This document shows, piece after piece, positions 20,527 to 61,584 of a DNA stretch of 64,000 bases. Every line of letters starts with the position of its first letter. The stretch's first letter is position 1. The position numbers were made by a program, and so were the translations under genes. The stretch lies in the NCBI GenBank assembly GCA_964016885.1, contig OZ024747.1:84506001-84570000 (forward strand). Reading direction: 5' to 3'. This DNA is from Eledone cirrhosa (taxonomy: Eukaryota). The notes beneath the pieces were generated by a model. The model saw nothing but the letters and a program-made list of their open reading frames with translations, made no database searches and was not told the origin of the DNA.

Positions 20527-20559
<33 letters not shown>

Positions 20560-30601: not shown

Positions 30602-30643
<42 letters not shown>

Positions 30644-33600: not shown

Positions 33601-36600
33601 GGTAAGTAGAATCCTATAGTTCAAACAACTCTTGTTATGGTCCTAATATAACATATGCATTCTAATAGCTGGTCTTCTTATCCATGGGTTATATAGGAGC
33701 AGTGGTGTCAGTTTATTCTGGAAATTATCCTTGAACACCCACTAAACTTTCTGCATCTTGGAAAAAATATAAGATTCCTGTCTAATTGAAGAATTTATTA
33801 AAAAAAAAGGTACTTCACAATTATTTGCTATCCTCTGAGGTAATGGTATACACCTGAGGTTTTGTACATCGGAGGAGAAGAGTAGATAAACAGATGGGAG
33901 GGGAGTGATAACTTTTCATTGACAGGTTCATGCTGTTACTGTTGGCCCCTATATACACACATATACAAGACCCTACTGTGCTAAATGTTCTATGCAAAGT
34001 CTATATGCAAACATCAGTTCAATATTTACATTCTGTGTAGCTACAACAATTATTTGAATAAAAGTCTTTTTGTTTTCAAATTTTGTAACTAATCAAACAG
34101 TGAGTTGGCAAAGTTGTTAGAACATCAGATTAAATGCTTTGCAATATTTGTTCTAGCTCTCTACACTTGGAGTTCAAATCCTGTCAAGATTAATTTTACT
34201 TTTCATCCTTTTGTGGCAGGGGTTGATAAATAAAGTACCAGTTCAAGGGTGGCAGATCGGTGAAATTGTTAAAGCATTAGATGGTCATGCTTTATTGTAT
34301 CTGTTCCAGCTCAGTGAGTTCTGAGTTCAAATCCTGTCAATAACATTTGTCATGAGTTGCTACTAACAGATAGTCTCAACAATAGAAAGACTATTTGAAA
34401 CATAGTCTCCTTGGTTCACTTAAATGATTGGTCTTTTCCTTTCCCTGTAACTAATTATAAACATTATAGTGTTATTGGAAAGGACACTTAGCTTTTTATT
34501 TGCTTAAGGCTTTCATGCATATTCAAGAAATTACTTCAATTCATTTGTTTTTAAAAATAGTTTTTCTTGATTTATTTATCTGCAGAGTTACTACAGAAAA
34601 CAAAAATTTGAAGATATTCCACTCTTTCAAAACTCTGGTGACAGAATTGCTACAGTGATATTATATGTTAGTATTTAATTTGTTATTATCATTATTTTGT
34701 TTGTTAAAGGGCGGTGGATTGGCAGTATCGGTAGAGGGTCGGACGCCATGCTTTCCAGCATAGTTACGTCCCTTTACCATCTGAGTTCAAATCCCGCCGA
34801 GGTTGACTTTGCCTTTCATCCTTACGGGGTCGATAAAATAAAGTACCAGTAATGCACTGGTAATTGCTGGCCTTGTGCCTAAAAAGTAGAAACAATTATT
34901 TTGTTTGTTATACATAGTTGCCATATATTTGGACATAGACATAACTGTGTGGTTAAGAAGTGTTTCCTTGCTATGATGAGGTTCCTGGCTCAATCCCACT
35001 GTATGGTATCTTGGGCAAGTGTCTTTACCATGGCTTTAGGTCAACCCAAACCTTGTGAGTGAAATTATAGACAGAAACTGTTTGAAAGCCCTTTGGATGG
35101 ACTGTATCTGTAATTCTAAGGTGCAGCTTACAGACAACAGCTGGAACATTCATTGTCAAAACCAATGGAGGCTCATTCCATATTGGTTATATGTATGATG
35201 ATTGTAACCATTCTAGAAGAAAAAAAATGTTAACCATCTTCCATGATGTCATTGTTTCAATTTCAATATAATGTCTCAAATTATGTTCCTTGACAAATAA
35301 CATAACTCCAAAATATAATACAATATTACATAATATAATATAATTTTATCATAAAATAATAATAATTATATGATGATGCTGAAAAGTGGTAATACAATAT
35401 AAATATAATACATAAATACATATATTTAATTATTTTCTAGTTAAGTGATGTTCCACTGGGAGGTGAAACAGTCTTCCCCAAACTTAACCTCCATATACCA
35501 ATTGTAAAGGTTTGTCTTAACCCTTTCATTATCATCTGTCTGTGTCTAACAAAATACTTTGTGTGTTTCAATTAACTTACAAAATAATCAAAAAAATTCA
35601 AGAATTTCGTAAAGTAACTAACATTTTTATTATTAATCTGATGTCTAAGGCAGTGGATTAGCAGTATCAGTAGAGAGTCGGACGCAATGCTTTGTAGCCC
35701 TTTATTATCTGAGTTCAAATCCCGCTGAGGTTTACTTTGCCTTTCATCCTTACGGGGTCAATAAAATAAAGTACCAGTAATGCACTGGGTAATTGCTGGC
35801 CTTGTGCCAAAAGTAGAAACAATTATTAATCTGATGTCTAAAGCAGTGGATTAGCAGAATACCCCAGCTTTATCATTCAATAATCAGAAGAAGAGAGATT
35901 GGTTTAAAAGCATTGGTCGCCTATCACTGGCAGGGTATGCTTATTCTCTCTCTCTGATCTGTCTGTATGTTCCTCTGTTCTGTTTGTCTTGTCGCACACA
36001 CTTCATACAAGCAGAAATATTTATTTTCTGTTGCTGGAACTGGCATGAAAGAGTGCAGTCCTCTCAGTTAATTTATGTGAAAGCACAGGCCAGATTGAGA
36101 GCTGACAAGGTCATTAATTATTTAAATATAGTGTATTTCATTAGAAATATGGTAACAAAAGAGTTAAATATTATTTTGTTGTATTACTGCAGGGAGCAGC
36201 AGCTGTATGGTACAATTTACACCGTAATGGAACACCAGATTCACGTCTGCTCCATGGAGGTTGTCCAGTTATATTTGGTGACAAATGGAGTAAGGGTTAA
36301 AGTTAATTTTGTGTTTCTTTGAAGTATCTAAGAATTGATAATTGTGTGTGTGTGTGTGTGTTCGTGTGTGTGTGTGCGCGTGCATGTGTGTGCATGTGTG
36401 TGTGTGTTTGTGTGTGTGTGTGTATGTTTGTATGTATGTTTGTGTGTGTGTGTGAGTGTGTGTTGTTATGGATGCAATCATTAGATCCTAGGTTCAATAC
36501 CACTGCATACTACTAACAACAAAATATCTAAAAAATCTTTGCTTTTTTAAATTTTTTATTTAGTAAGTACTAAATGGATTCGAGAAGCAGGACAAGAATT

Positions 36601-36634
36601 CAGAAGACCGTGTTTATTAGATCCTCATTTGTAA
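19674..36634 (+). CDS. P4HA: Prolyl 4-hydroxylase alpha subunit-like gene 2 (spliced, 13 coding exons, ~547 aa)
   Basis: Exons 19674-19885, 24550-24725, 25447-25775, 26764-26809, 27028-27191, 28306-28467, 28923-28993, 30472-30586, 33551-33601, 34586-34666, 35441-35509, 36193-36289, 36564-36634 (1644 nt, in frame). Motifs: signal peptide MFKLTVAAIFLLWS, WPDADDLQGASLGLLR, FEKLCR, ILYHDVI, RISQSTWL, VINYGIGGLYLPHHD, GDRIATVILYLSDVPLGGETVFP, WYN, LLHGGCPVIFGDKW, KWIREAGQEFRRPC. Confidence 0.93.
20558..20962 (-). mobile_element. RTE LINE 3' UTR copy
   Basis: Highly similar to 421-805, with a (CAT)n tail. Confidence 0.85.
21690..24330 (+). mobile_element. 5'-truncated CR1/L2-like LINE ORF2 (AP endonuclease + reverse transcriptase) with frameshifts, in intron 1 of gene 2
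   Basis: ORF 21706-22701 contains AGDFNH, PTRGDNTLDLLFT and SDH (APE). ORF 22893-24002 contains NYRPVSLTS, YLDFAKAFNSVPH, SGVPQGSVLGPLLF, YADD, ERDLGI, VRPHLEFASPVWNP, LETVQRRATK. Confidence 0.92.
29040..29866 (+). mobile_element. RTE LINE 3' fragment with (GAT)n tail
   Basis: LREKLGISRIRCSVHERNIHWYGHVMHMEDDSC, followed by the shared 3' UTR. Confidence 0.85.
30660..30975 (+). mobile_element. Mariner transposase relic
   Basis: IVTADEKW (mariner IVTGDEKW first catalytic Asp motif) and downstream WWDWKGVIH, with frameshifts. Confidence 0.65.
33140..33520. repeat. ~380-bp (CTT/CCT)n polypyrimidine tract
   Basis: Almost pure C/T. It ends ~30 nt before the acceptor of the HxD exon (33551) of gene 2. 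Confidence 0.9.
34709..34899 (+). mobile_element. Full-length tRNA-derived SINE copy
   Basis: GGCGGTGGATTGGCAGTATCGGTAGAG (A box) ... GAGTTCAAATCCC (B box) ... GCCTTTCATCC ... AAACAATTATT tail. Confidence 0.8.
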
Positions 36635-38208: not shown

Positions 38209-41200
38209 TTAGCTTTGTTTTTTTGTTTTCTGCTTCCTTTTTGGTCTCCATCGCAAGTCCCATACTCTTTTCTCTGTCATACGGCAGTAGTTAGCTTGTC
38301 GTTCATAATAACCAACAGATGCAACTGCAATTTCAAAAAAATAAATAGATTTTCTTGTTTCTCAATGATGTTTTAAAACATTTATAGCTTCCTATATGAT
38401 TTTTTAATGGTTTAGTTAGAAGAGGAAGTAACAAGTATTTTAACCCTTTTATTATTATACTTTTGATGAAAGACACTGCCTATAATTTTTCAAATAATTT
38501 TGAAAATAATCAAATATTTGGAGAGATTTTAAGCTGGCGTTATGATTGGTGGTATTTAGATAAATATAAGCACTTAAAAATATACTGCTTTGTATTATAG
38601 AGCTGGGGGTAGTTTGATATCAAAAGGGTTAAATATAAGGTAGAAAAATAAGAGAAAAATAAGAGAAAATAGAAGGTAGAGAGGATTTTCAGTATTACTC
38701 TAGTGCTGGTGACATGATAAAATGCACACAGTGCACTCTGTAAAGTGTTAGTATTGGTGTCACAATAAAATGCACCTAGTACACTCTGCAAAGTGTTGGT
38801 GTGATGTCATGATAAAATGCACCCAGTACACATTATAGAATGGTTGGCATTAGGAAGGGCATCCAACCATAGAAGCCAAGTCAAATATAGAATGTAATGA
38901 GCAAGACATGGTTCTCCAACTAATATAGTCTTGGAGCGTGATAACCCATCCAACCCATGCCAGAATTGAAAATAGATATAAATGATGATGATGTAAAAAA
39001 ATAAAGAGAAAGGACACAGCACATCTGTTGGCCAGAGTTTAGAGTGTGTTAGCTGTTAGTTTGGTGGCTCTTTCTCTGCAGTAGATATTACTATTAGAGT
39101 GAGGAGTAGATGAAAAATATAGTCAGTGTTAACTTACCCCATAATGAGCCATGAGCTATGGGACAGACTGCTGGGTATAAATGCATCGCATACCAAAAGA
39201 GAACAGACCCCTGTTAAAAGAAAAAAATATATTTATTTCTTGTTCATTTTTTTCATTTTTGTTCTTAATATTAAATATTATGAGTTCGTTAGATAAAACA
39301 AGAAACCAGAGATTATATTACCGTGGTAATATTAGTCCCAACATGATTCTGTCCATAACACTGTCCATATTCAAAGGATCTATCAAGAACCTTCCAGAAT
39401 ACCAGAGAGGAACTTGTTTAGGCCTCTGTAGCTATAGATAGCTGCTACTTGGCCACTGAACATCTTTTCAACATTGTGTAAGAGAGAGGGGGAGGAAGAT
39501 ATCAAATTACCATTTGTCAAAGTTAAAGTTACCACAAAGTTGTTGTAACATGACACATGTTTTCTTATAAAGATTTATATATAAAGAATGAAGAACAGAA
39601 AGAGAGAGAAGGAGACTAAACAAAAAAAATGACAAAAGATATATGAAAAATAGAGAAAAAAGTGAAGGGGCAGAGAGAAGGAAGAGAAAGAAAACGTGAG
39701 AAAAAGAACAAAAGTGAAGAGAGAGAAAAATGAAAAGAAAAGGTGCAAGAGGGAGATAAAGAGAGACCAGTTGCTTACCTTTTTTACAGTGGCTGTTACG
39801 TTTGTAAATGGGAAGACAATCTGACCCCCTTCTGTGATGTCATTCAACTTGAAAACATAGAAATAATAATTTATTGTACAAGAGCTTCCAACAAAATTGT
39901 CTTGTTTGTTATTACAACAACTTTAGCAAGGCAGATATATTAACACTTTAACCTTTTCATGACCATATTTCTATTGAAAATTAGTTTATGATTTTCCACT
40001 AATTTTGAAAATAACTCTGAATTTGGAGGAATTTAAACATTTTAAAACAAACAGTTTTGTATCACAGAATTGGTATTGATTACGTATCAAAAGGATTAAA
40101 ACAATATTGGACGAGATAAAATATTCTATAAAAGAAATTCTTATGAATCTCAAATAACAAAATGTTACTATTCACAGATACTTACAGCTACTAAAAATGA
40201 ACCAATCTGTCCACCTATTGATGGTACTGGCTGAAAAACAAAAATAAGTTTTTAAAAAGTTACAAAACGTCCAAAATAAAACAATTTAGAAACATCAACA
40301 ACCCTTTCGTTATCATATTTTTTATGTAATTAAATCTAAACTATAATAAAGTAAGGAGTGCAGGACTGCGTCCAGAATATATTTTTTTATTCATCATCAT
40401 CATCATCATCATCGTCTTCGTTTAACGTCCATTTTCCACGCTAGCATGGGTTAGACGGGAGTTGTCCCACTTGAGGCAAGGCTGGTCGGGTGACCGTGTC
40501 TCGCTCATATAAGACTATCTGAAAGGTTTTCTACGGCTGGATGCCCTTCCTAACACCAACCACATTTACAGTGTGGAACTGGGAACTTTTTACTGTGTTA
40601 CCTACACGGCCACATTACAACGTGGACTGTGTGTTTTTTCTTTTGTCGTGACACCTACACGAACTTGATTTCATTATCTCATGCTGTTGGTGGGAGTGGG
40701 AGGATAGGGGAGGAGTAGTAGATTGGGGTGTATATTTGGTTAAGAGGTGCCTACTAACTGTAGGTTTTGCTTTGTACATAGGCAAGGCGGGTCTTCTGTA
40801 TTACTGCGTAAGCACCAAAGATCTCGGTCCAGTGACATTGTCTTGGAGAGATGTAAGTGTGTGAGGTCGGAATTTATCAGATCATCCCAGGTTTTTCTGG
40901 GTCTACCTACTCCATAACTACCATCAATTTTGATCACCCTGCACTTTTTTATGCAGCTGTCGTCTTTCATGCACATCACGTAACCATACCAATGTAGTCT
41001 CCTCTCAAGTAAACAGCATCTGATCCCTCTTATTCCTAATTTCTCACTTAGTTCATTTATGCTTTGCCGTTCACGTATATTACTATTACACATCCAACGG
41101 AGCATGCATGCTTCGTTCCTTTCCAGTCTACGCAGGTCCTCTGCACGTAATGCCCATGTCTCACTGGCATGTAGCATTGCTGTTCGTATACAGGCATCAT

Positions 41201-44200
41201 AAATCTGCCTTTCATTTTTAGAGACAAACCTTTTGTGGCCAACAGCGGTATAAGCTCTCTGAACTTTTTCCATCCCGTTCTGACTCTGGCTACTGCACTT
41301 TCAGAACACCCTCCACCACTGCTGATTTCGTCACCCAGGTAACGAAAAGTGTCTACTATTTCTATGGAACCATCTGGGCAATAGAAGGAGCTAGTATCCT
41401 TTGCACACTTGCTACTTATTGCACCTGAGCATTGGCCACATATAAAGTCTACATTCTTAGATAGTTTACCTGTGATCCCACTACATCTTTTATGTACCCA
41501 TACTATGCATTTGGGACATAAAATGGAATTTCTGCCTACTCCTTTCCTACACACTGAGCATGGCCATTTCCCTGAGGGCACCTGTGCCCTATTTTCCTTT
41601 CTACAAACTAGAACTTTAGTCTTAGACAAGTTAACTTTAAGGCCTTTTGATTCTAGGCCATGCTTCCATGTTTCGAATTTCTTCTCTAGTTCAGCCATTG
41701 ATTCAGCTATGAGCGTTAGATCATCTGCGTATAGGAGTTCCCATGGGCAGCCGGTCTTGAACTTCTCTGTTATAGTCTGAAGGGCAATAATAAATAAGAG
41801 GGGGCTAAGTACATAGCCTTGATGAACGCCAACTTTTACACTAAATCCTTTACAATATTCATTGTTAATTCTAACCTTACTGACTGTTTCATTATACATG
41901 GCTTGTATAGCTCTCCAAGCCATTCATCTACACCTAGTAGTTTTCTAAGAGCCCACTAGATAATGGAGCGGGGGACTCTGTCAAAAGCTTTCTCCAGGTC
42001 TACAAAAGCTAAGTAGAGGGGTTTACTTTTAGCTAGGTACTTCTGTAGTTGTCGTACGAGGAAAAGAGCGTCTGTGGTACTTTTACCTGACACAAACCCA
42101 AACTGCATTTCATCTAGATCAATTCGCTCTCTGATTAGTTGCGCTATAACTCTTTCTGTGACCTTCATGACCTGGTCAACTAACTTAATGCCTCTATAGT
42201 TTCCCCTATCTAGAGCATCCCCTTTACCCTTGTAGAAGTTAATGATGATGCTGCTACGCCAGTCTTTCGGTATGATCCCATTCTGTATTACTTGGTTAAC
42301 TATACGGGTGACCATAGTGTGTCCCACCATACCAGATGCCTTCAACATCTCAGCAACTATCTCCGAAGGCCCAGCTGCCTTGCCTGTCTTCATATCTTTG
42401 ATTGCCTTACTTATTATACTACCTTTAACTTGCACTGCTGGTCCTTCTATTGGATCGATTTGGGGCAGACTATCTTTTTCCCATTTATTCTCCTCATTTA
42501 ATAGTCTCTCGTAGTGACACTTCCAGGCTATCTTCTTATCAGTATCAGTGAGCACAAGTACACCATTATTACGGACACACTTCTCCCCGACAACATCACG
42601 GTTTTCCTTAACACATTGTCTAGCAATCCTGAACACCTCACGTTTTTGGTCCTCACGTTGCAGAACATGCTTGAACTTTGCTACCCTTTTTGCAAGGTAC
42701 ACTTGTCTCCTAGCTTCTCTCCTGGCCACTTGATAGTGCTCTCTACTTCCCCCATCCTGCCATACTTTCCAAGCCTGCTTTTTGGCCTTGATTGTCTCTT
42801 CCACCTTACTGTTCCACCACCAAGTTTCTCTCCTCCTGCCAATAGGTCTGCTCCAGCCACAGATTTCATCCGTTGCTTTCAGCAGGTTCACTTTCAAGAA
42901 TTGCCACTGTTCCTCTATATTGCACGTCTCTAATTGCTCTTCCTTATTGTCAAAGGCATCAAGTTGGATTACTTTGAATAAATAATGAATGAATATTACA
43001 TAATTTATCTACTAAATTTTTTTATTCTTGATTAAATATAAATAATTTTGCAGCTTATTTTAAGATTCACCTCTTTAAAATTTTCAAATGTCAACACTTC
43101 CGGTTAGCGATCGCTTAAATAAACATTCATACATTTCCGTCATTAATTTTCCCCTAATGCAATTTATATATAATATAGTCTTTTTTTAATGTATCATGGA
43201 TTACGTTACTGATTACATAAGACAGTGTAACGCAGTCTTCCTTCAATTTCTGTGTATATTGTCAATTATGATTTTATTTGATGTATCATATCTGCATGAA
43301 TATATACTTGCGTATAATATCAATATGCACACTACACATGCTAGCAGAAAACCACCCGAAGGGTGATTTTTCTGCTAGTAAATATAATGAAGGATTGGAG
43401 AGATTTACTAAAATTATTGATTCTGTCACTATTAAAGTGGTATATTTAACATAACTTGACAAAATATATAAAATTTAACAAAAGTTTTAATTTAACAAAA
43501 AATCTCACATAAATTAATGATGGAATGTTTTTAGATAAATATAAACTCTCTAAAATAAACAGTTTTTTTTTATTTTTATTATAGAACCAAGACAATTTCA
43601 GGTATTGAAAGGGTTAAACTTTTAACGACTGTAATTTTAATGATTGTATTTTTAATGAACTACCCTCTATTTTAATTACGTAATGGGGAATTTTAAGGGA
43701 TTTACTAAACTTATGAATTATTTCATCATTAAGATCAGGGCTGAATTTAACCACATGTCAAAAAACACAAACAACAATGAACTAATGAACAATACACACA
43801 CATCACACCAACAATCACCATAATAGTACACATAAAAATATGTTGTTTTTGTTATATTTTTATACAAAAACAACCCACACTGTATTGTCCTTTGCCATCC
43901 TTAATGTTTTCTTGTAAACCATTTGTGGTTAATAAAGAAATCATTACTATTATTATTATTGTTGTTATTATTATACTTACTGCATGTAGAGGTACAAAAA
44001 AACCTTGGACTCCAAAGTTACGAATCTGAAAAATATTTTTATTAAATATTAACAATTATGATCATTATATTGATGATGTCTTAATATTATGTAATAATAT
44101 TAATAGAGGCATATATAGAAGCATATAAAATATGCTTATGTATAACAAACATACATACATTTCACTTTGATAATGTCAAAGTGGCCTCAGTAACTATGTG

Positions 44201-45123
44201 AGAACACCAAATATTACAGGTATGTTCAGTTCTTTGTGGACACATCTTTTAATAGCTCTAACTTTTTTCTAACTTGTTCTGATTATCATTTCTTTTCAGA
44301 CAAACAATGACAGACATGAAGCTAACTCAGAAAATTAAAAGAGACACAGTAATCACTTCCTTAAAGGTAGACCATAGTGATTTAGAGATTTCTTGTTTCT
44401 TAAACGTTGTATGGTTGTTTGTTGTCAAAGCTCACAAAGAGTTAGAAGCTGCTGACAGGAATTCTACAGTAGTAGGTAGATTCTACAGTAGTAAAATTAC
44501 TGCTAATGATCCTAATACCATCAGAATACCCAAATTTGTGTGAAAGATGCAGTAAATTATCAATAAGAACTCTAGAAAGTCAATTAGTGCTATTGATGGT
44601 TTCAATGCATACTATCAGAAAAATTGTGCTTGAGGACCTTTGATACAAGTCTTATATGTTGCGGAAAGGCAAATTCATCTCTGCAATGACAAAAGATAAC
44701 CATCTTATCTGTGCAAAGGGCTTGTCGAGCAAGTTGAAACATCAAAAGCTTGGAATGCTTTTGTTTTTCTCTGATGAGAAAAACTTTGAACAGGACCAGG
44801 AAAAATTTTGATGACTCCAAGTAAGTGACATCAAATATTTTTTAATATAAGTGAGCTTACATCAGTCTTGATCTGGACAATTGGTCAAGGTAACAAGACA
44901 GGAGAGTCACCCTCAAGCCTTATTGCATCAACCACTAAAATGAAATGACAGCTGTTATATGTAACACAAACCTCAATAACACTAGGATCAAGTGGAGGAA
45001 ATACCAAGTTTTTTAAATCTGTAAAATGTCTTTTAAGCTCAGTTTGTTTCTGTGATTTAATTTTACTGTTAACTGAAACCCTGAAAAAGAAGAAAAAAGA
45101 ATATTTGAGAAGAGAGACAGTGT

Positions 45124-45165
<42 letters not shown>

Positions 45166-48100
45166 CGTGCGTGTGGTGTATGTGTGTGTGTGTGCGCGCG
45201 CGCGCGCGTGTGCGTGTGGTGTGTGTGTGTGTGTGTGTGTAACAAATGGATGCCAGGTTAACCAACAAAGCAGAATAAATCTGAAGAAATGAAAGAGGAA
45301 GGAATGCAGGAAGTGTTAGAAAAAGCCAAGATACAGGAAATAATGAGAGAAAATGTATTTTATTAGTGCCATGATAAAAAGCACCCAGTCCACCATGTAA
45401 TGCAGGTGCCATGATAAAAAAAAACCCAGCCCACCAAATAAGGTGGTAGTGCTGGTGCTACAGTGAAAAAAAATACTCAAACCACCAAATAAGGCCATAA
45501 ATGGGTAATCAAAGTTGATGGAAGCTATGGAGTGGAAAGATTTAGAAAGACTTGGGATGAGGTGATAAAAGCTGACCTTGCACAACTGCACCTCTCAAAG
45601 AAATGACATAGGACTGTGATCTCTGGCTCTATGCAGTAATACAGAAGACCCTCCTTCCCATATGCAGGGACTGAGGCATACATCTAGTACGCACCAACTT
45701 CCCTCCCATACACCTCCCACGTTGTAATCACCCTACCCATAGATCTACCTCCCCAATACCCCATGCATCTCCCCTACCCAAATCTCCAATCAACACTATT
45801 GAGTGACCATCTTGATACCACAACAATGAGCACCCAATCCACACTGTAAAATGGTCATGTAGGTCTCACGACAAAAAGCACCCAGCCCACCCTCTAAAGT
45901 GGTCATGTAGGAGATCACAACAAAAAGCACCCAGTCCACCTTGTAAAGTAGTTGTGTAGGTATCACAACAAAAACTACCCAGTACACACTATAGATGTGG
46001 TTGGCATTAGGAAGGGTATCCAGCCATAGAAACTGAGCCAAAATCAGTTTTGTGTGAGCAAAACATGTTCCTCTGACCTGGCTTGTCTCACAATGGGACA
46101 GCTCATCTAACCTATGCTAGCATGGAAAATGGACGTTAAACGATGATGATGATGATGATGATATATATGGGGCAGGTGTCTTCCACTTTGGCTTTGGGCT
46201 GACCAATGCCTTGTAAGTGAAATAATAGTTAGAGGGAAAATTCAATGAGGTCTGTTATGCATGTGTGTATATATGTAAGTGTATGTGTATATGTCTGTAT
46301 GTGCCTTTGCTTTACAACATTACCAACAACAACAACAACAAAACTCATGTTAAAACTAGACTTACATTGTCGTTTCATTTTTTTTTATATATATACTTCT
46401 GTTAACATATAAATGAACAAAAGTCAATTTTGCCACATCATAACATTTATCGAATAATCACTGTTGTTGCCAGCTGTTTGATAGTATTATATAGCAGTCA
46501 CAATGTAACATACGTAGTCTCAGTGTACATTACAATATGTACAGTCAATAATTGATCCAGTTTGAGCAGTGATTTGTTGGGAGGTTGAGGTGGAGTGGTA
46601 ACACACATGAGAGGGGAGAAAGAAGAAGATATCTATTTGTATTTTAACATTTTTCACATGTTGTATGTTCTGTTCAGTTCAGTTTTACTCAATAGAATAC
46701 ATTTCAGGCATATATTGATTGAAATAATTTTTATTTATTTATTTATTTTACTAATGCAAGTGTTTTTTTTTTCTTTTTCGTTGATTTATAAATTTTATTT
46801 ATTATTGTTATGTTAAGTACATTACTTTAGTGGTACATATACCGAGTGAGTTCAGTTTAGAATAGGTACTGTACACTGTATATTTAACTGTGTTGTGACA
46901 AAAGGGGTTGACACCAGGAAGTGCATCCTGTCATAAAACATTGGGTCAAACCCCATACAAAAGCACTGGAGCTGTTATGGGATCTGCAAGGCTAACCCCT
47001 GTCTTAGCAGGAGAAATCCCCTTAAAGTGCTTGTTGTTTTACTTTAGTTACATAGTGGCATTGCTTGCTTTAATTTGTTTTGTTTTGTTTTTTGCCGTCA
47101 ATTAAAAAATATAAATAAAGTATTTGATAGAAATAAAATTTAATATATCTGAAGTGAATGTATTACATTTTTGCTGAAATATATTTTTTATTGAGGTGTA
47201 TGGCTTGCCTCAAAAAGTTTTAGAGCAAAACATCCATATCTGATTTGTTTCTTTTGTAAATCATATTTATTATATAAATTGTATTCATTATTGAGGTGTA
47301 TGGCTTGCCTCAAAAAGTTTTAGAGCAAAACACCCATATCTGATTTGTTTCTTTTGTAAATCATATTTATTATATAAATTGTATTCATATGAACAAGGTG
47401 TTTTTTTTAATAAATCACACCTGATTACATTTTATATATATTTCATGAACTTAACTAAATATTTTAATATATCTGAAGTGAATATATTTTATACATAATA
47501 CAAGCTTAGACTAAATATTTTAATATACCTGAAGTGAATATATTTGATATATAATACAAGCTTTGACTAAATATTTTAATATATCTGAAAAAGCCTTCCC
47601 TGGTGAGGAATGTACATCCCAACATAGCTTAGTTGTCAGCGACCTCACGGTCAGAACTAGACGAACCTGGAAACAGAGGTCAACCTGAAGAAAGATCTGG
47701 AAGCTGAAAGACCCCTCAACCAGTAACAGATTTAAAGATATTTTACTCAACGCCTACGACAGTAAAGAAGAACAGATAGAGACATTCAATATAGAAGAGA
47801 ACTGGAAGTTCCTAAAAAATAATTTACTAGAGGCGACGGATGAGGTCTGTGGCTGGAGTAAGACCTCAAGCAGGAGGAGAGTGACTTGGTGGTGGAACAA
47901 TAAGGTAGATGAGGCAGTTAAGGCCAAGAGACAGGCATGGAAAGAATGGAAGAATGGGGGGAGCAGGGTACATTACATAGAGACCAAGAGGGAAGCTGGC
48001 GACAAGTATACTTAGCTAGGAAGGAAGCAGAGGATAGAAAATTCAAGCATGTTTTGCAACGTGAGGACCAGAAACAGGAGGTGTTCAAGATTGCGAGGCA

Positions 48101-51100
48101 GTGTGTCAGAGATAGTTGTGATGTCATTGGAGAGAAGTGTATCCGGAATGATAAAGGTGAGCTTGCCCTCACAAGTGCTGAGAAGAAAGATGCATGGAAG
48201 AGTCATTATGATAGATTACTAAATGAGGAGAATGCATGGGAAGAAGAGACCCTACCCCAAGTAGACTCTATAGAGGGGCCAGCAGTACAAGTCAGCAGCA
48301 ACGTAGTAAGTAAGGCAATCAAAGATATGAAGATGGGGAAGGCAACCGGTCCATTGGGTATAGCTGCCGAGATGCTGAAGGCATCGGGGTCTGTAGGTCA
48401 CACTATAACCACACGTATTGTTAACCAGGTATACTAGAAGGTGTCATACCAAAAGATTGGTGCAGTAGCATCATTGTCAACTGCTACAAAGGTAAAGGTG
48501 ATGCACTAGATAGAGGAAACTATAGAGGTATAAAGTTGATGGACCAGGTCATGAAAGTAACAGAAAGAGTTATAGCACAGTTGATTAGGGACCGGGTGAA
48601 AATAGACGAGATTCAATTTGGGTTTGTACCAGGAAGAGGCACCACTGATGCCCTCTTCCTTGTCAGGCAGTTACAGGAAAAGTACCTATCTAAAAGTAAG
48701 CCACTCTACTTGGCATTTGTCGACCTTGAGAAAGCCTTTGACAGAGTTCCACGTGCTGTAATCTGGTGGGCTCTTAGAAAACTAGGAGTAGATGAATGGC
48801 TTGTGAAAGCGGTACAAGCCATGTATAGGGGAGCAGTCAGCAAAGTTAGGATTAGCAATGAGTATAGCGAGGAATTTAGCATACAGGTTGGGGTCCACCA
48901 GGGCTCTGTTCTTAGCCCCCTCCTGTTCATCATAGTCCTGTAGGCAATAACGGAGGAGTTTAAGACCGGATGCCCATGGGAACTCCTGTATGCTGATGAC
49001 CTCACACTTATAGCTGAATCTATGGTAGAACTAGAGAATAAATTCCAAACTTGGAAGCAGGGACTAGAAAGAAAGTGTCTCAAAGTCAACATGACAAAGA
49101 CTAAGGTCCTTGTAAGTAGATGAGAAAACAGAACCCAGATCCCCTCAGGGAAATGGCCTTGCTCAGTATGTATGAAAGGTGTAGGTAGGAACTCCATTCT
49201 CTGCCCCAAATGCAAACAATGGGTACACAAGAGATGTAGCGGGATCTCAGGAGGCTTAATTAAGAATGTAGGCTTCACATGCAGCAGCTGTGCTGGGACA
49301 GCAAGCAGCAAACAGCCACAGGAAACAAGTACCACCAATCTCTGGGAGGTCTCTGTAGAAACAGTAGACAGCTTCTGCTACCTAGGTGACCGAATTAGCA
49401 GCGGAGGTGGGTGTTCAGAAAGTACAATAACTAGGGTAAGAACGGATGGAAGAAGTTTAGGGAACTACTACCGCTGCTAGCTGCAAAAGGCTTCTCCCTC
49501 AAAATGAAAGGCAGACTGTATGATGCATGTATCCGAACAGCGATGTTGCATGGTAGTGAGACCTGGGCGCTGAAGGTGGAAGACTTACGTAGATTAGAGA
49601 GAAACAAAGCCTGCATGCTCCGATGGATGTGTAACAGTAATATACGTGAACGACAAAGCATAAATGAATTGAGAGAGAGACTGAGCATAAGAGGAATCAA
49701 ATGCTGTGTGCAGGAGAGGCGGTTGCGCAGGTATGGACATGTGATGCGTATGAAGGATGACAGCTGCATAAAAAGGTGCAGAGCACTAGAAGTTGATGGA
49801 AACCGCGGAGTGGGGAGACCCAAGATGACCTGGGATGAGGTGATAAAAGCCGACCTTACCCAATTACACACGACCGTGACCTCTGGCGTCATGCAGTAAT
49901 ACAGAGTACCCGACCTCCCATGGGTACAAGCTGAAGCATATAGACAATATGCCCCACACCCCCCACCGCAAGGTGGTCGTGGAGGTGCCACGGCAAAAAA
50001 GCACCCAGCCCACACTGTAAAGTGGACGTGTAGGCGCCACGAAAAAGCACCCAGCACTCACTGTAAATGAGGTTGGTGTTAGGAAGGGCATCCAGCTGTA
50101 GAAATCAAGCCAGATCAGTTCCTGTATGAGCAAGGCATGGTCAGCCGACCAGACACTGCCCACAACAGGGCAACCTGTCTAACCCATGCAGACGTAAAAC
50201 GGTGATGATGATGATGATGATGATGATCTGAAGTTACTATGTTTTGTATATAATACAAGCTAGATAAAATATTTAAATATATGATATTTATTTATTGTAC
50301 ATGTATGATACTATTTTGTTGATAAGCTACAGTTTAATATTCCAAAGAAAAAAGAATGAAAACACAGAAAATAAACAGTGTAATAATTGTTTCTACTTTT
50401 GGCACAAGGCCAGCAATTACCCAGTACATTACTGGTACTTTATTTTATCGACCCCGTAAGGATGAAAGGCAAAGTTAACCTCGGCGGGATTTGAACTCAG
50501 AATGGCAATAAACAGTGTAATAATTGTTTCTACTTTAGGCACAAGGCCAGCAATTACCCAGTACATTACTGGTACTTTATTTTATCGACCCCGTAAGGAT
50601 GAAAGGCAAAGTTAACCTCGGCGGGATTTGAACTCAGACCGTAAAGGTGTAATAATAATTTCTAATTTAAACACAAGGCTAACAATTTAAAGGGGAAAAT
50701 GATACTGTACTAACCCCTGCATTTCATATTTATATATGTTATGTTCCAGCATTGACTGCATCTAATCACAAGAAAAAAGAAAATTATGTAATAAAGACTT
50801 GAATAAAATGAATGTATTATGGATTTAAAAAATAACATTTAGAGAAGTTTACCACTGTTTGAAATGTCTTTAACTATAGGTCTGAGTAATATTTATCATT
50901 GAAACTGGGCTGAAAAGTAGAAATATCATCAACAGTGTTACCACATATATTTAAACTATGTCTCTGAAAGAGATCAAACAACTCAAGCACTCATTGGTGG
51001 AGTGTATAACGGGTTCTTATTTTATCAAATGATCAAAAAGTGAGACAAAGAAAGAGAAAAGAAAAAAAAACATAGAAGTAAATAGCACACACATATTAGA

Positions 51101-54100
51101 CCACATGCAACAAAAGGCAGGCGAAAGGGGTGGACAACCGAGAATATAATTGAAAATGACCCTTTGAATTGACCCTTTTAATACCAAACATCCTGAAACT
51201 GCCTCTCACTTAACAATACTAAATTGTTTATTGCAAAGTGATTATATTTGTATAAACATCTTCCATCATAATTTAATGTACAAATCTTTGTTAATTTATG
51301 CTCCAAACATTAGCTTAAAATTGAGAAAGTTATATCACCTAACACCTCAAATTTGGATTATTTTCAAGATGGTTTGAAAATCTTAGAGTCTCTTTCATTA
51401 GAATTACAGTAATAAAAAGATTATGTTTTGTTCTAAACATGAGTTTAATAATGAGAAAGTTAGTTATAATTACTAAATTACTCCAAATTCTTGATCATTT
51501 TCAAAATGATTTGAAAGTAATGTCTGTCATTAGAAATATGATAATAAAAGGGTTAAATCAGAACTAGTATCAATAATAGAATTCCTTGCTTTTTTACCAT
51601 TCATAACTCAAGATGTAAAGAAATATATTTCTCACCTGATCAATACCAAGTTTTCTTATTGAATTTGTGATATTGTTATTAACTAAATCATGGAACAAGA
51701 CAATACGTGGCTTCAGACTGAGAATCTCTGCTTTACCAAATGATAGCTGCTTATGTGTAGGATGTAAGTAACAATAGAGTTGTGATGTTTTCTTAACTGG
51801 CTGTAAAAAAGATAAAATACAGAACATAGAAATATCAAAGATAAGTTCCTAGTAATATAAAAACTATTACAGCCTTCATTTGCAAGCAGGTATGACTTGG
51901 GAGTAATACTCAGACACCCACTCAACCAACCCTCTATTAATCCAGTGGAACATGCAGGAATGTGGCAGCTGAAAGGACAAAGGGATTAACCAGCACCGGG
52001 CTAGTACTTTCTTTATCAACCCTGAAAGGATGAAAGACAAAGTGGACTTGATGAGATTTGCACTCAGAATGCTGAGACCTCGGAGAAAGATCCAACTCTC
52101 TAATGACACTCCCAATTTGACCACTTTACCTAGCAGTATAAATAATACATGAAGCAGTTCAATGAAAAAAAATTCAACAACAACAAATATTTTAAGGCCA
52201 TTTTCCTTGTTAAAATAAAGGTGAGCCTTGCTGCCTCTATATAGTCTTTTTTGAGCCAATGTTTAACTGTGTCTATCTGGTTTAGAATAGGTACACTATA
52301 TCCCTGTATGTTGTAAGAAGTGACTAAAAGAGTGGCTGTCGAAAAGGGCATCTGGCAGTAAAAATTTGCCTCAAAAAAGTCCTGTTCAACCCATGCCAGC
52401 ATGGAAAAGTCGATGTAAAAAAGATGATGATGATGTTTTACTACTGGATATCATTCCTGGCAACAACCCTTTTAGGTACCTCTTACAACATGCCTAGATA
52501 CTGTGTACCTATTCAAAACTAGATATACTGTAAATTGCAAGGAAAGAATAACTGGTTATTTAGATTAATAAATATATTAGAAAACTTATTTTGATTACAC
52601 TTTGTTTTGAGTAAATACATGAATAAATGTTTGTGAGGGGAAAGAGATGTAATATTTAGGCGTCATCAGATTTGCAGTATCTGTTCCAGTTCTCTGTGTT
52701 CTGGTTTCAAAACCAGCCATGGTTAACTTTTCTTTTCATTCTTTCAGCATTAATAATTAAAGTTCCAATCCAAGACAGGGTTTACAAACTTATTAGAGTG
52801 CCGGACATGATGCCCAGTGGTAGCTGTTCTGGCCTTGTACACCCTGGGTTAAAATCCAACTTCCTTGTCACTGGAAAAATGGTGATATGAGAAAACTGGG
52901 GCTTGTATCATTAAAACAGCCAAGAAACTTTCTGTAATATGCCACTTGAAAGTAGGCTGGCCAAACTTGCACAGTTGTGAACCATAACAACAACATATAC
53001 AGTCATCTTTGGCTATATCTTTCTTAGTTTTACACTTCTACTTCTTTCTACATTCATTTCCATCACTCCTTTTACTCAATTATTTTCATTTTTCTTCAAC
53101 ACATGACCCAGCCAACTCATTCCATTTCTCTTCACAACAATATAGCTGTGTCATTAATAAAGAAAGACAAGTTAATTTACCTGAACAATTTCTTTAAGAC
53201 ATAATTTCTCATATTTTGCTTCTTGAATGTCTTCTGGAATTTTTGCCTCTATTTTGCCAGGAGAATTTCTTTGGGACTTTAGTTTCTTCTCAAAAAAGTT
53301 CCTATTTTCTTTTGCACGTTTATTATGGGGGTCTAAAATGGATATAACATAACTTAGACATGGTATAACATAATAATACTTAATAATGAAAAAGTTAATT
53401 ACTTTATTAAGTTCCTCCAAATATATATATATATGTACATAATATTTGAAGGTGTTTAATAAAACAACTAACATTTTCAATATATATATATATGTAACTG
53501 CTTCTTTTAAAGTATTCATACTTATATTAAAATTAAAGCCTTTTATCATAAATCTATGTAAGAACATTCTTTAAGTAATTCTCTGAACTTCTCCTTAATC
53601 ATTTCATTGCCATATTTCTAATGAAATACATTGCCAATGTCTTTCAGTTAATTTTGAAAATAATCAAATATTTGGAAGAATTTAACAAAAAAAAAAAGAG
53701 AGCTGATCATGAAATGATGAACCCCACAGAGATGATGATGAAGGAATACAACAAATAGAAGGATGCTGTGTTGGAAAAGACCCATCTAGCCCATGGAAGC
53801 ATTTGAAAAGAAGTTGATGATAATGATATAGAGAATTCTTGCTGTCAAAAGTTGCAAAAGATAAAAATTTAAATATTTATAAACTTACCTGCATCAAGAA
53901 GTTCATTCAGTACTTTGATTGCTTCTTCATATTGTCCCATCTGAGGATACAAAAAGTGAATAAATTTCTTAATTAGCCTTGAACATTTGGTTATCATGGA
54001 CACTGGAGGTCTTGATGGCAACCAGCTTGAATAGAAAGTAGCTGGTCAAGTCCTGCTCTTTGAATATTTGATTATTTGATATATTTAGGACTAGATTTGT

Positions 54101-57100
54101 AGGAGTTGAAGGTTTAGAAGTGTTCATTTTTTTGTTAATGATACCAGTGTAACCATTGGAGAGAGGTTGCTACAGAAAATAGGAGACCAGGATAGTGGAT
54201 AGTAATAGATGTATATTTGTATCGACCTGTAATTCTTGATGGAGTTATATAGGTGCCACCACACCATAAACATGGCAGAGCCCATCCCTCTCCAGATTTG
54301 AACACAACTGATTTCTTCCACAGAAGAAGAGAGATGCAGTGAGAAAAACCTATAGAGGAAGAATTGACCCCAGTACTGGACTAATAATTTTTTTATCAAC
54401 TTCAAAAGGGTAAAAGGAAAAGTTGACCTCAACAGGATGTGAACTCAAAAAGTAGAATTTGAACTGAGAGAGCACAAAAACCAGAACAAATAGCACAAAA
54501 CATTATATTCAACATTCTAATATAACTGCCAATTCACTGCACTCAGTGATAGATAGTTTGTAAAAGGTTATAAAAAGGTATTCAAGGTGCAGGCACAGCT
54601 GTGTGGTTAAGGAGTTTGCTTCACAACTTTAGGGATTACTCCCACTATTGAGACCTTCAGCAAGTGTCTTTTACTATGACCATTGGTTGACCATTGTCTT
54701 GTGAATGAAATTTGGTTGGTAGAAACTGTTTAGAAGCCTATTATATATCATCATCATCATCACTGTTTAACATCTATTTTCAAAGCTTGCATGGGTTAGT
54801 CAGACTGTCATGTTATGAGGCTTGACAGGTCAGATGACCATGTCTTGTTTATATGAACTGTTTTGGGATTGGGTTCTATAGTTGGATCCCCTTACTAATG
54901 CCGACTACCTTACAGCATATATTGGGGGCAGTTTTGTGGCACAAAACCTTACAGGATGGACTGGCTGCTTTTTGTCATGATATCAGCATGACTACCTTAC
55001 AAGGTTGACTGGGTGCTTTTTGTTGTGGCACGAGTATGACCCCCTTACAGGGTAGACTGGGTGCTTTTTTGTTGTGACACCTACACTACCACCTTACAGG
55101 GTGAACCAGGTGCTTTTTGTGCGTTTACTTTTGTTTTTGTGTCTGGGATTATGTCCTGTAACTTAGCTGTTTGACAAAAAGAGATTGATAAAATAAGTAC
55201 TAGATTTGATATGATTAACTAAAATTCCTCCCCTACCTTTTTCCTTTTTTTTTAATTAAGAATCTTCTCACCTCAAACAAAGAAGATGCTAACAGGCTTA
55301 AGATGCTGGTGATATTTAACATACGGTTATCCAGCATCTCATCAGAACATTTCTCTTTCTTGCCTTCTCTCTTGCACACTTTGAGGGCTTCCCGTAGCCA
55401 CTGTGTGGCTGTGTAGAAGTTATCTTCATCAAAAACCATACGGGAAATTTGGAAAAGGTCGGTGACTGTAGGTTTCTGAAGGGAGTGTTTGTCATCGATT
55501 GTGCCATTCACAAGTAGTGCAAGATCTATATTGTTTAGATACTGCATCCGAGCTAAACCCCAGGAAATTGTGATGAAGTCTCCTTCGTCGGGGAAACTCT
55601 CTCTTAAATCATCCAACTTCTGACGCAAACCTAAGGAGAAAAAAGAATATAAACACAAAGATAAGAATTAAAAACCAAAAAATAATCATGGTATGTGTGA
55701 GACATATAGACCAATACACATAATTATACATAACCAGCCATGCAAACACAGACCTGTAAATATACAAATTGTTTGTGCATGTGCACACATGCACACATGC
55801 ACACACACACACACACAAATACAAGTGTTGATCGCGGTATTCCAGATAAATCGACTTATGTTGCCTTCCTGCAAATATGATATCAACATATATAGTTTAA
55901 CCTTTGCTAGAAAAAATGGACATTAAATAATAATAATAATGGCATATGTAACAAATCACTTTCAAATATAATGGATTTGGAAATATATATATATAGAATG
56001 GTAAAAAGAAGATAAATTCCAGGCACTAACCTTTGTGTTGAATTTTCTTTTCCAGAACGTTTTCAATAAGCCTCAACCATTTATGATGGAGTCGTTTGAT
56101 TAAGTGAAAAGCATTAAATGGGTGGTTAAGATATGTTTCTAGATCAGTGCCAACAACTTTATGGATAGCTTTCGATTGATTAATTTGACTGAAATGAAAC
56201 AACAAAAAATTCCTATAATTGATAGTTTGCAATCTAATGAAACAATCCTATTTTACATAGAGCTGCTTCCTTTATACAAATACAGTAAGGTTTTGAATAT
56301 GTATCATAATGTGTCGAAAAACTTGAATTAACTGAGATTATCTATGCTGCCATGCAGTATTTTCCATAGGCCATGTTGGTGAAATTTTGAAGTAGTTGTT
56401 TTACTTACCATCTAATGAACTGTAGCAATGAATAAATAGGTGGTCAAAGTTGATGGAAACTATGGAGTAAGAAGACACATAAAGACCTGGGATGAGGTGA
56501 TAACAGCTGACCTTGTGCAATTGCACCTCTCAAAGATAATGACACAGGATCAAGATCTTTGGTGTTATGCACTAATACAGAAGACACACCTTTCCATGCA
56601 CACAGACTCAAACATACATCCATTAAGCACCTCTTAAACACTTAACCCCTATACCCAATTCCATACATTCCCCCGCATGCTCCAACACCCACCCATCCAC
56701 TTCTGTCCACACCACCCTTATACTATAAAGTTATGTAGGTATCACAACAAAAAAGCACCCAGCCCACACCATAAGGTGGTTATGTAGGTGTCATGACAAA
56801 AAAGCACCCAGCCCACACCATAAGGTGGTTATGTAGGTATCACAACAAAAAAGCACCCAGCCCACACCATAAGGTGGTTATGTAGGTGTCATGACAAAAA
56901 GCACCCAGCACACAGTGTAAATGTGGTTGGCATTAGCAAGGGTAAACCTAGCCAGAAACAGTTCCGTATGAGCAAGACACGATCACCTGATCCAACATAC
57001 TGCTAATGCGACAACCCATCTAACCCATGCTAGCATGGAAAATAGACATCAAGTGATGATGATGATGATGATACATGAATCACTCTTTTTCTGGAAAGGA

Positions 57101-57969
57101 TACTAGCCTAACACTAGTAACATTCCCAAATATGATAGTTTGCTTCCTACAGTTAGGTAAACTAAGCTACATGTAAACAAACTGAAGTATGAGGTGATGC
57201 TCATGAAGATGCTTGGATACTCCTGTGTCTTAGCCTTTCTATCACTCACAGTAATGGCTTGAGTGTCTTGGATTGCTTTGAAAATCTTTAGAGGGCACCA
57301 CCAGCATTTCCTCTTGTGTGTAATTGAATGTGCATGCATGTGTTTTCCATTTTCTTTTCTTCTTTCTAACTCTTTTTATTAATTTTTTTCTTTTGTAAAT
57401 TATTTATTAGTGTTTCATCATTCATTCCTCCCCCAAATTACTGGCCTTGTGCCTATACTAAAAATCATTATATAAATATTTTAAACTTTCAAATCTAGAG
57501 AGACATAGTAAAATCAACTTAGAACCTATAAAATGCAAGTCCAATAGTTTCTCAAACTGAATATTTCATCTCTACAAATGTATGTAATTATATTATTAAA
57601 TATATATTTTATAGATTAAAAAATGTATTAATAAACATATATTTTATAAATTTAAAAAATTGTATTTACTAATATATATTTCACAGATTAAGAAAAAATG
57701 AATGTAATAAAATAAAATAGAAATACTTACGTTTCTATGTTAATTATGTCTAACTCTGTAGGACTGTTCGCAAATATCTCTTCATTTCGCAACATCTGCA
57801 TTAAAGTGATGATCTCTGATTCTAAACTATATTGCTGTTCTAAATTGATGTATGATGAAAGAGCTGTGTTGGTTATCCGTTTTGAGTAAATAGCAGAAAC
57901 ATTGAGGCAAATCCATATCGAAAGGGCAGCAGTGGTTATAATGACATTAAAATGTGCCATAATAACCAT
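38209..57969 (-). CDS. Divergent prolyl 4-hydroxylase alpha-like gene 3 lacking the catalytic residues (probable pseudoenzyme; 13-14 exons, ~542-553 aa)
   Basis: Minus-strand exons 57969-57731, 56188-56031, 55630-55272, 53940-53889, 53332-53181, 51800-51636, 50761-50715, (46398-46366 optional), 45080-44972, 44025-43981, 40230-40186, 39847-39779, 39210-39138, 38324-38209. All are GT-AG and in phase, and several lengths match gene 1 (52, 152, 165, 69 nt). Motifs: YLNHPFNAFHLIKRL, FPDEGD, DPHNKRAKENRNFF, YEKLC, PRIVLFHD, LNDITEGGQIVFP, GSVLFWY, CP. Exons 50761-50715 and 46398-46366 are the least certain. Confidence 0.82.
38440..38632. mobile_element. piggyBac-like MITE family B
   Basis: TTAACCCTTTT...ATCAAAAGGGTTAA. 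Related copies near 21205-21424, 32641-32893, 39948-40099 and 51170-51556. Confidence 0.6.
40392..42965 (-). mobile_element. ~2.6-kb 5'-truncated RTE-clade LINE (RT with PHD-like finger)
   Basis: ORFs 41956-42897, 41057-41923 and 40740-41273: NYRGIKL, QFGF, AFVDLEKAFDRVPR, VGVHQG, LLYADDL, CSVC..CPKC..WVHKRC..CGQC, FRYLG, GRPRKTW. (GAT)n tail at 40392-40415. Confidence 0.93.
43008..43378 (+). mobile_element. Possible non-autonomous Helitron
   Basis: A|TC start at 43008. The 3' hairpin CTAGCAGAAAACCACCCGAAGGGTGATTTTTCTGCTAG ends in CTAG|T. Confidence 0.45.
44130..44820 (+). mobile_element. Tc1/mariner-superfamily transposase relic
   Basis: LFFSDEKNFEQDQ motif at ~44761-44800, preceded by an HTH-like degraded region. 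Confidence 0.55.
45510..46162 (+). mobile_element. RTE LINE 3' fragment
   Basis: KVDGSYGVER..KTWDEVIKADL, followed by 3' UTR repeats and (GAT)n. Confidence 0.75.
47188..47590. repeat. Local tandem duplications (~101 bp x2 and ~61 bp x2-3)
   Basis: TTATTGAGGTGTATGGCTTGCC...GTATTCAT occurs twice (47188-47388). ACTAAATATTTTAATATATCTGAAGTG units follow. Confidence 0.85.
47590..50226 (+). mobile_element. ~2.6-kb 5'-truncated RTE-clade LINE (second subfamily)
   Basis: PGEECTSQHSLVVSD (end of APE). ORFs 47937-48437, 48536-48943, 49172-49480 and 49504-49899 carry RT motifs and the PHD-like finger. (GAT)n tail; ATCTGAA on both flanks. Confidence 0.93.
56440..57072 (+). mobile_element. RTE 3' fragment whose UTR carries a 49-bp tandem array
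   Basis: KVDGNYGVRRHIKTWDEVITADL. Alternating 49-bp units at 56731-56910. (GAT)n tail. Confidence 0.8.
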
Positions 57970-60977: not shown

Positions 60978-60997
60978 GATAGATAGATAGATAGATA

Positions 60998-61551: not shown

Positions 61552-61552
<1 letters not shown>
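60998..61552 (-). mobile_element. Tx1/L1-clade 3' end, copy B (near-identical to A, more truncated)
   Basis: Aligns to 60036-60603 with a small internal deletion. Bounded by (GATA)5 and (GATA)8. Confidence 0.85.

Positions 61553-61584
<32 letters not shown>

Follow-up and report, generated by a model that had tools for sequence, protein, structure and literature searches.

An ancient clade of prolyl 4-hydroxylase alpha pseudoenzymes in molluscs, predicted to be catalytically dead, with a member in the octopod Eledone cirrhosa

Can an alpha subunit of collagen prolyl 4-hydroxylase (P4HA) that has lost its iron and 2-oxoglutarate ligands still be a gene under selection, and what would its product do? 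The question is raised by a 64,000-nucleotide (nt) stretch of the Eledone cirrhosa genome (contig OZ024747.1, positions 84,506,001 to 84,570,000, assembly GCA_964016885.1; hereafter the window, in which all positions are counted). Three genes in the window resemble P4HA: two of them (genes 1 and 2) lie on the plus strand, and the third, gene 3 (57969-38209), lies on the minus strand and is convergent with gene 2. An earlier reading, made from the sequence alone, proposed that gene 3 encodes a selected nonenzymatic protein of P4HA fold and is not a decaying pseudogene. Our analysis indicates that gene 3 is almost certainly a real, selected pseudoenzyme. Its product is predicted to be catalytically dead, and sequence comparison identifies it as an octopod member of a mollusc-wide, ligand-less P4HA group spanning cephalopods, gastropods, and bivalves.

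Rebuilt from the window, gene 3 comprises 13 exons that have GT-AG at all internal sites and encode 542 amino acids (aa) with no internal stops. Exons 7 and 8 were fixed by orthologs, splice scores alone having left both among many candidates. The sequence-only reading had described 13 or 14 in-frame GT-AG exons with the phases of the neighboring genes. Frame, splice sites, and freedom from stops stand, the count is 13 rather than 14, and the intron phases (2,1,0,1,0,0,2,0,0,0,0,1) are held in common with the active neighboring paralogs, being those of gene 2 exactly and those of gene 1 except for one extra intron in the latter. A hydrophobic N-terminal stretch and the P4Ha_N domain are both present, in line with the signal peptide and N-terminal dimerization region that had been read as retained. 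The P4Ha_N model (PF08336) matched exon 2 (Table 1) and the ortholog P0001 (E value, 8.6e-17), and the tetratricopeptide repeat (TPR) model of the peptide-substrate-binding (PSB) domain (PF23558) matched P0001 at 2.9e-11. No Pfam catalytic-domain match was obtained for P0001, P0002, or single exons of the window; P0008 gave a weak match to 2OG-FeII_Oxy_3 (6e-4), which was below the cutoff.

In alignment columns numbered by human P4HA2, following the accessible sections of PMC9676403, every member of the Fe(II) triad is replaced in gene 3 (H430 by L440, D432 by A442, and H501 by P493), as are the three 2-oxoglutarate anchors (K511 by L503, Y421 by F431, and T467 by I467). Further changes affect Y427 (F437), the Arg of the GDR motif (Q450), and the KWI motif (VASVG). 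These columns bear out the reported loss of HxD, the distal His (now Pro), the 2-oxoglutarate Lys (now Leu), the GDR Arg, and KWI; an 8-residue deletion right before the distal-His position had been overlooked. Genes 1 and 2 retain all six Fe and 2-oxoglutarate ligands. Alternative exons that would restore HxD..H..K, also considered in the earlier reading, were sought by tblastn with three active catalytic halves as queries, and none was found within 36700-64000. Four cysteines are retained (C314, C330, C496, and C518, equivalent to C294, C311, C504, and C529). They had been equated with structural disulfides, and all four are indeed kept; according to the available sections of PMC9676403, the sole intrachain disulfide is C294-C504, and C311 and C529, the LYC and YCR cysteines, form disulfide contacts to the a' and a domains, respectively, of protein disulfide isomerase (PDI). 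Compared with collagen P4H alpha subunits (human P4HA1, P4HA2, and P4HA3; structures 7ZSC and 4BTA), gene 3 is alike in its layout of N, PSB, linker, and catalytic (CAT) regions, its predicted fold, its intrachain and PDI-contact cysteines, and its predicted PDI interface, but it is without HxD..H, the 2-oxoglutarate Lys, Tyr, and Thr, the GDR Arg, and KWI.

Is this exon chain used? Four read runs, all from one study, were compared over 38150-45110, a region that holds exons 8 to 13 only (7 of 20 kb). In run X3, contig 17 (2413 nt; depth, 36) has no listed differences in the exons of gene 3. It matches 44972-45081 and 38150-38324, and the 232 nt between the two matches equal the summed lengths of exons 9 to 12, so that the introns between exons 8 and 13 are skipped exactly and a spliced gene 3 transcript is indicated. 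X3 had a depth of 0 to 2.8 in five bins that hold little or no exon sequence, and in five others that contain exons its depth was close to the expected value or higher; these 10 of 30 bins were used, one more intron-only bin had a depth of 0.65, and repeat-containing bins were set aside. The other three runs covered the introns evenly. X3 is inferred to be RNA, and the dead exon chain to be the form that is spliced; transcription and splicing of gene 3 are likely.

Intact orthologs and relatives with ligand losses were found in cephalopods, gastropods, and bivalves. The gene 3 protein is 75 to 76% identical to its orthologs in O. bimaculoides, O. vulgaris, and O. sinensis, 71% identical to that of Argonauta, and 50% identical to P0008. 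Word-seeded searches also gave a Logan family of 554-aa proteins (12 members) with the same losses as the octopod orthologs. A profile of seven gene 3 relatives had 1189 matches at an E value of <=0.001 among 1.84 billion representative proteins. Below the cluster representative P0020 came ten proteins at 201 to 275 bits and P0032 to P0034 at 162 to 180 bits; in a look-up of ten proteins, eight of these 13 proved to be named (Sinanodonta, Solemya, Lottia, Nucella, Magallana, Ruditapes, Haliotis, and, at 162 bits, Mizuhopecten). P0031 (Trichinella) was excluded from the clade, its score of 195 bits being due to its nature as a fused double canonical nematode protein. The ESM Atlas yielded generic 2-oxoglutarate/P4HA clusters only.

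The losses are shared across the clade. We aligned 106 rows and the three window genes; 20 rows belong to the clade, two of them truncated at the C terminus, and 87 comparators are the next-best profile matches of single-gene length, fused or short ones among 150 having been omitted. A full Fe triad was present in 0 of the 20 clade rows. Individual Fe ligands were rare in the clade and nearly universal among comparators (H430, 1/20 versus 81/87; D432, 5/20 versus 86/87; H501, 3/18 versus 84/87), and the 2-oxoglutarate ligands were absent from the clade altogether (K511, 0/18 versus 84/87; Y421, 0/20 versus 84/87; T467, 0/19 versus 83/87). The cysteines are kept nearly without exception (C294, 20/20; C311, 19/20; C504, 18/18; C529, 18/18). 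A deletion of 7 to 9 residues before the distal His, absent from collagen P4H alpha, is common to the clade: the W..C loop has 10 to 12 residues in all 18 full-length members versus 19 to 20 in 89 of 89 others.

These columns also bear on whether the site might still work by migrated metal ligands or a different chemistry. H441, H490, and H500 lie near the site in gene 3, and the gastropod-like P0024, P0032, and P0033 keep the distal His and have His or Asp nearby. However, the orthologs have Y, D, or K at H441, Q at H490, and Y at H500; not one of the three 2-oxoglutarate anchors survives in any clade row, and no polar residue of the site is conserved clade-wide. We consider noncanonical catalysis quite improbable, and migrated ligands were rejected because the nearby histidines are unconserved even among cephalopods.

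A tree of 48 selected rows grouped together all 17 of the clade members that it contained (Shimodaira-Hasegawa-like approximate likelihood ratio test [SH-aLRT], 99), and inside this group cephalopods, bivalves, and most gastropods separate. With N and PSB columns only and four other degenerate proteins left out (44 rows), clade support was 100/99, and the dead clade adjoined a divergent active group that holds genes 1 and 2. The four omitted proteins (P0043, P0084, P0106, and P0123) are P4HA-like and lie outside the clade, so ligand loss also occurs elsewhere. P0043 and P0084 have lost both Fe histidines and keep the Lys and a full-length loop; they have an N-domain cysteine and a tryptophan-containing C-terminal tail in common with the dead clade and possibly represent a sister lineage at an earlier step of inactivation.

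Regional identity was used as a proxy for selective constraint. Against the distant cephalopod-like P0008 and P0020, respectively, the gene 3 protein is 59 and 59% identical in the jelly-roll and 62 and 62% in the N-terminal extension of CAT, compared with 48 and 45% in the N domain, 50 and 49% in PSB, 26 and 26% in the linker, and 26 and 22% in the signal region. By this measure, constraint on the dead domain is higher rather than lower, and this domain is the best-conserved folded part among cephalopods. This pattern matters for the suspicion that gene 3 is a decaying pseudogene or an annotation artifact, to which the lost catalytic residues and the long terminal branches of noncephalopod members might point. 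A frame open over 13 exons, a spliced contig, conservation structured by domain, and a set of named molluscs that includes four octopods with full-length orthologs and at least eight others with relatives make such decay scarcely credible. The earlier proposal of a selected nonenzymatic protein is supported by the spliced contig, the intact orthologs and relatives with the same losses, and a dead domain better conserved than N and PSB.

What has been conserved is predicted to be a fold and a PDI-binding surface. With the O. bimaculoides ortholog P0005 as a structural stand-in for gene 3, the AlphaFold2 model had a predicted local distance difference test value (pLDDT) of 88.3 and a predicted template modeling score (pTM) of 0.86. 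Its best structural match was human C-P4H-II's CAT domain (7ZSC; VIA Z, 20.4; root mean square deviation [rmsd], 3.0 A over 204 residues; Foldseek E value, 5.4e-10), and its PSB domain matched 9HTD (Z, 15.2; rmsd, 1.7 A). Retention of the three-domain P4HA fold and of the 2-oxoglutarate-dioxygenase jelly-roll is thus predicted. We modeled residues 300-532 of P0005 with residues 46-497 of the octopus PDI P0176, which was found via the genome's own PDI exon. The complex scored 0.73, against 0.00 for the best of three controls; since a similar complex (7ZSC) has already been solved, this pass shows likeness to that structure, possibly memorized by the model, and not binding, and the modeled proteins are O. 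bimaculoides stand-ins. Agreement between runs was at least 88% of contacts, and the partner pLDDT was at least 69. In a calibration on microbial proteins, 51 of 78 solved pairs but also 2 of 108 mismatched ones came up to this score mark; among novel solved pairs from eukaryotes, 39 of 65 did. The modeled interface places C331 against the second WCGHC and includes residues 517-521 and 337-342, the first WCGHC, and PDI residues 264-325. In human C-P4H-II, a hydrophobic segment of the alpha subunit enters PDI b' (PMC9676403, accessible sections). The LSFG of exon 6 is likely the equivalent of that segment, LLIA, which enters the b' pocket, and the dead domain is predicted to dock on PDI a, b', and a' via C330, C518, and LSFG as human C-P4H-II does. 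The gene 3 protein is probably PDI bound.

The same surface speaks to the idea that gene 3 encodes a secreted structural or matrix protein instead of an endoplasmic reticulum (ER) resident. The protein has a predicted signal peptide and six N-glycosylation sequons, and no KDEL-type C-terminal end was found in it, all of which would suit secretion. Canonical alpha subunits are likewise not known to have a retention signal of their own. The PDI-contact cysteines and the predicted interface are retained, and we regard secretion as very improbable.

Several observations weigh against the picture of a single, transcribed, client-binding clade. Run X3 is not on record as RNA and comes from the same study as the other runs, and its junctions are deduced from record coordinates (15 of 263 joints displayed). 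Three clade members, the P0024, P0032, and P0033 named above, keep the distal His. A mixture model with 29 rows and the four degenerate proteins included gave clade support of 82/91, which was not starred, and placed P0043 and P0084 beside the dead clade. The groove has also changed: Tyr is found in 0 of 20 clade rows at 193 and likewise at 196 (mapping checked against 4BTA), D192 and Y233 are lost as well, and both substrate-binding loops of the gene 3 catalytic fold are shortened. Because of the mixture-model support, the adjoining P0043 and P0084, and tree roots set by midpoint only, a single origin of the dead clade is likely rather than proven. Cephalopods, gastropods, and bivalves split in the Cambrian, and the age of the clade may exceed that of these three mollusc classes.

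The groove of gene 3 differs from that of collagen P4H alpha at several positions. In the PSB pockets of gene 3, Y158, R223, N227, and F231 are kept, F stands at 199 and 230, and D192, Y193, Y196, and Y233 are replaced (comparator columns are poorly aligned here). Across the clade, N227 is kept in 18 of 20 rows and an aromatic residue at 230 in all 20. In human C-P4H-I, mutation of Y193, Y196, or Y230 raises the Km, and alanine mutants of Y193 or Y196 bind peptide more weakly (PMC12433258, available portion). With Y193 and Y196 lost and the substrate loops shortened, direct binding of (Pro-Pro-Gly)n by the gene 3 clade is probably weaker or altered. The collagen-chaperone role suggested by the sequence-only reading is weakened in that its groove, without D192, Y193, Y196, and Y233, is half eroded, making such a role less certain.

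This erosion favors, to a degree, a PDI-bound pseudoenzyme for noncollagen clients, that is, a PDI adaptor or foldase subunit that would serve other secreted mollusc proteins via a remodeled TPR groove and a closed jelly-roll. None of the 20 rows retains Y193 or Y196, while N227 and the cysteines that contact PDI stay, and new contacts are suggested by the clade-specific N42, K86, H89, and G452, by an N-domain family cysteine (13/17), and by the cephalopod tail (59 to 76% identity). However, half of the P5 pocket (N227, F/Y230, and F231) is retained, gene 3 adjoins active P4HA paralogs and groups nearest to them in the N-plus-PSB tree, and no alternative client has been identified. We judge this alternative unlikely.

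The known nonenzymatic relatives offer partial parallels. CRTAP belongs to the 3-hydroxylase family and is not known to have any dioxygenase domain, and SC65 (P3H4) is similar. Membership of gene 3 in this leprecan/P3H family was ruled out: the clade profile matches P4HA1 far better (1.8e-37) than CRTAP and P3H1 (8.9e-6 and 5.1e-7, in the TPR helices only), and a dioxygenase-fold domain is present. CRTAP, as found in the P3H1/CRTAP/PPIB complex (8K17), and gene 3, noncatalytic by prediction, are both related to a collagen prolyl hydroxylase, and each has a TPR groove and an Asn that is conserved. The pockets of CRTAP keep their aromatic residues, whereas gene 3 keeps a whole conserved dead 4-hydroxylase domain and the PDI-contact cysteines. 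N184 of CRTAP corresponds to N227 of PSB (PMC12433258, section 3.9, in its accessible part). Drosophila CG34041 is likewise derived from P4HA and unable to hydroxylate, but it consists of N domains only, without CAT and hence without the PDI-binding surface (PMC12340787, available portion).

We lean, by a little, toward an ER-luminal, PDI-bound, noncatalytic alpha subunit that dimerizes via its N domain and holds or presents collagen-like clients or tunes an active partner. A part in the maturation of collagen-like secreted proteins is likewise somewhat favored. The signal peptide would route the protein to the ER, where PDI would keep it soluble and retained, there being no KDEL-type end of its own. 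The N domain would dimerize with itself or with an active alpha subunit, giving an alpha2beta2-type complex. There, the role of the gene 3 protein would be to hold clients that are rich in proline or collagenous, to present them, or to tune the active partner, without hydroxylating.

A more specific form of this proposal is tentative, and we would sooner doubt it than accept it: a Cambrian-age dead alpha subunit in a mixed tetramer with active P4HA and PDI, acting as a CRTAP-like subunit for collagen presentation or quality control that evolved independently within the 4-hydroxylase family and shapes mollusc collagens. If true, a mixed enzyme/pseudoenzyme tetramer would shape collagens such as those of cephalopod connective tissue, byssus, ligament, and shell-matrix precursors. 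Two different alpha subunits coassemble with PDI in mixed tetramers in C. elegans; both are enzymes, unlike the pair envisaged here, and no dead partner is described in the accessible part of that source (PMC3548485). Mixed tetramers could also serve a negative regulator, a decoy that titrates PDI or makes half-active tetramers and so limits proline hydroxylation. The assembly surfaces are kept while the catalytic and part of the substrate-binding surfaces are lost, as a decoy would have it, and subunit competition yielding less active complexes has been discussed for nematode C-P4H (PMC3548485, available portion). The same portion describes PDI as abundant in free form, and a pure decoy is not obviously in need of a jelly-roll core conserved above N and PSB; this alternative is improbable.

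The noncatalytic alpha subunit that we favor would belong to an ancient P4HA pseudoenzyme clade that, as judged from its sequences, is undescribed in the literature searched and annotated as enzyme. No description of an inactive mollusc P4HA clade was found in that literature, which was mostly without subscription journals, and the accessible portions of PMC12869072 and PMC7971044 make no mention of an inactive P4HA. Database entries call clade proteins enzymes (e.g., XP_052827168.1, XP_011430792.4, and XP_046543029.1), and mollusc expression studies that tally "P4H-like" genes as hydroxylases may count a pseudoenzyme. That the dead clade has been kept in cephalopods, gastropods, and bivalves implies a noncatalytic role weighty enough for an entire inactive dioxygenase domain to have been preserved. 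The protein would be a natural case in which assembly and PDI binding are, by prediction, separated from catalysis.

Table 1. Exons of gene 3 and the two neighboring P4HA genes in the window
Feature	Position	Strand	Content
Gene 3, exon 1 (coding)	57731..57969	-	ATG, predicted signal peptide, start of N-terminal dimerization domain; AG acceptor just upstream
Gene 3, exon 2	56031..56188	-	P4Ha_N domain; Pfam PF08336, E 6.4e-10
Gene 3, exon 3	55272..55630	-	End of N domain, first half of PSB/TPR; Y158 kept; D192, Y193, Y196 replaced
Gene 3, exon 4	53889..53940	-	PSB TPR helix
Gene 3, exon 5	53181..53332	-	End of PSB, linker; R223, N227 kept; Y230 to F; Y233 to K; C314 (= C294, intrachain disulfide)
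Gene 3, exon 6	51636..51800	-	C330 (= C311, PDI a' contact), LSFG, start of catalytic fold
Gene 3, exon 7	50715..50761	-	Hairpin region, shortened; 88% identity with orthologs over 17 aa
Gene 3, exon 8	44972..45080	-	Ortholog-confirmed; covered by run X3 contig 17
Gene 3, exon 9	43981..44025	-	HxD exon; H430 to L, D432 to A
Gene 3, exon 10	40186..40230	-	Shortened betaII-betaIII loop; GDR Arg to Gln
Gene 3, exon 11	39779..39847	-	Jelly-roll strands; T467 to I
Gene 3, exon 12	39138..39210	-	8-residue loop deletion, H501 to P, C496 (= C504), K511 to L
Gene 3, exon 13	38209..38324	-	KWI lost, C518 (= C529, PDI a contact), conserved basic/aromatic tail, TAA stop; covered by X3 contig 17
Gene 1	5499..18171	+	Divergent P4HA paralog, 14 exons, 544 aa, HxD..H..K intact
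Gene 2	19674..36634	+	Divergent P4HA paralog, 13 exons, 547 aa, HxD..H..K intact

A canonical P4HA gene with HxD, the distal His, and the Lys is present on C21; together with genes 1 and 2, it brings the active-looking alpha genes in this 3.0-Gb genome to at least three besides gene 3. A search of the genome with PF13640 missed the window genes, so P4HA counts for the genome are lower bounds. No further P4HA-like exons were found in the 10 kb before or the 20 kb after the window. Genes 1 and 2 belong to a divergent active clade apart from the canonical C21 type. They keep all Fe and 2-oxoglutarate ligands and have degenerate PSB grooves (N227 to E in both; Y193 and Y196 lost), the reverse of gene 3, in which N227 is kept; they may act on noncollagen substrates or depend on a partner. 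The C21 gene has its PSB TPR exon in two copies (L005 1504-1671 and L007 1516-1662) and three similar betaII-betaIII-loop exons (L012 3977-4063, L013 634-732, and L014 894-974), a duplication that suggests mutually exclusive splicing.

At the 5' end of gene 3, the ATG has an AG acceptor 8 nt upstream (57970-57979), and contig arithmetic implies a leader of ~545 nt. Isoform X1 of O. bimaculoides carries a 14-aa N-terminal extension, and no sequence for it was found in the window or in 20 kb upstream; given this and the implied leader, gene 3 presumably has a further exon upstream. At the other end, the C-terminal tail after the last cysteine (38212-38290, exon 13) is 59 to 76% identical among cephalopod-like orthologs and partly common to Haliotis; of low confidence in the structure model, it may be a binding motif.

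Open reading frame pieces mark reverse-transcriptase-bearing fragments resembling long interspersed nuclear elements (LINEs) in introns of gene 3 (~40400-42960 and ~47600-49950) and in intron 1 of gene 2 (~21650-24180), and read depth is very high over the LINE-like region at 40250-43500. The genomic-looking runs X1, X2, and X4 show intronic differences at 39470, 38896, 38994, and 39860, one of them a 17-nt deletion, with none listed in exons 8 to 13 of gene 3; these differences probably represent the other haplotype. Upstream of gene 3, at ~60020-62460, a GC-rich repeat occurs in three related copies, each more truncated than the last, with (GATA)n runs between them.

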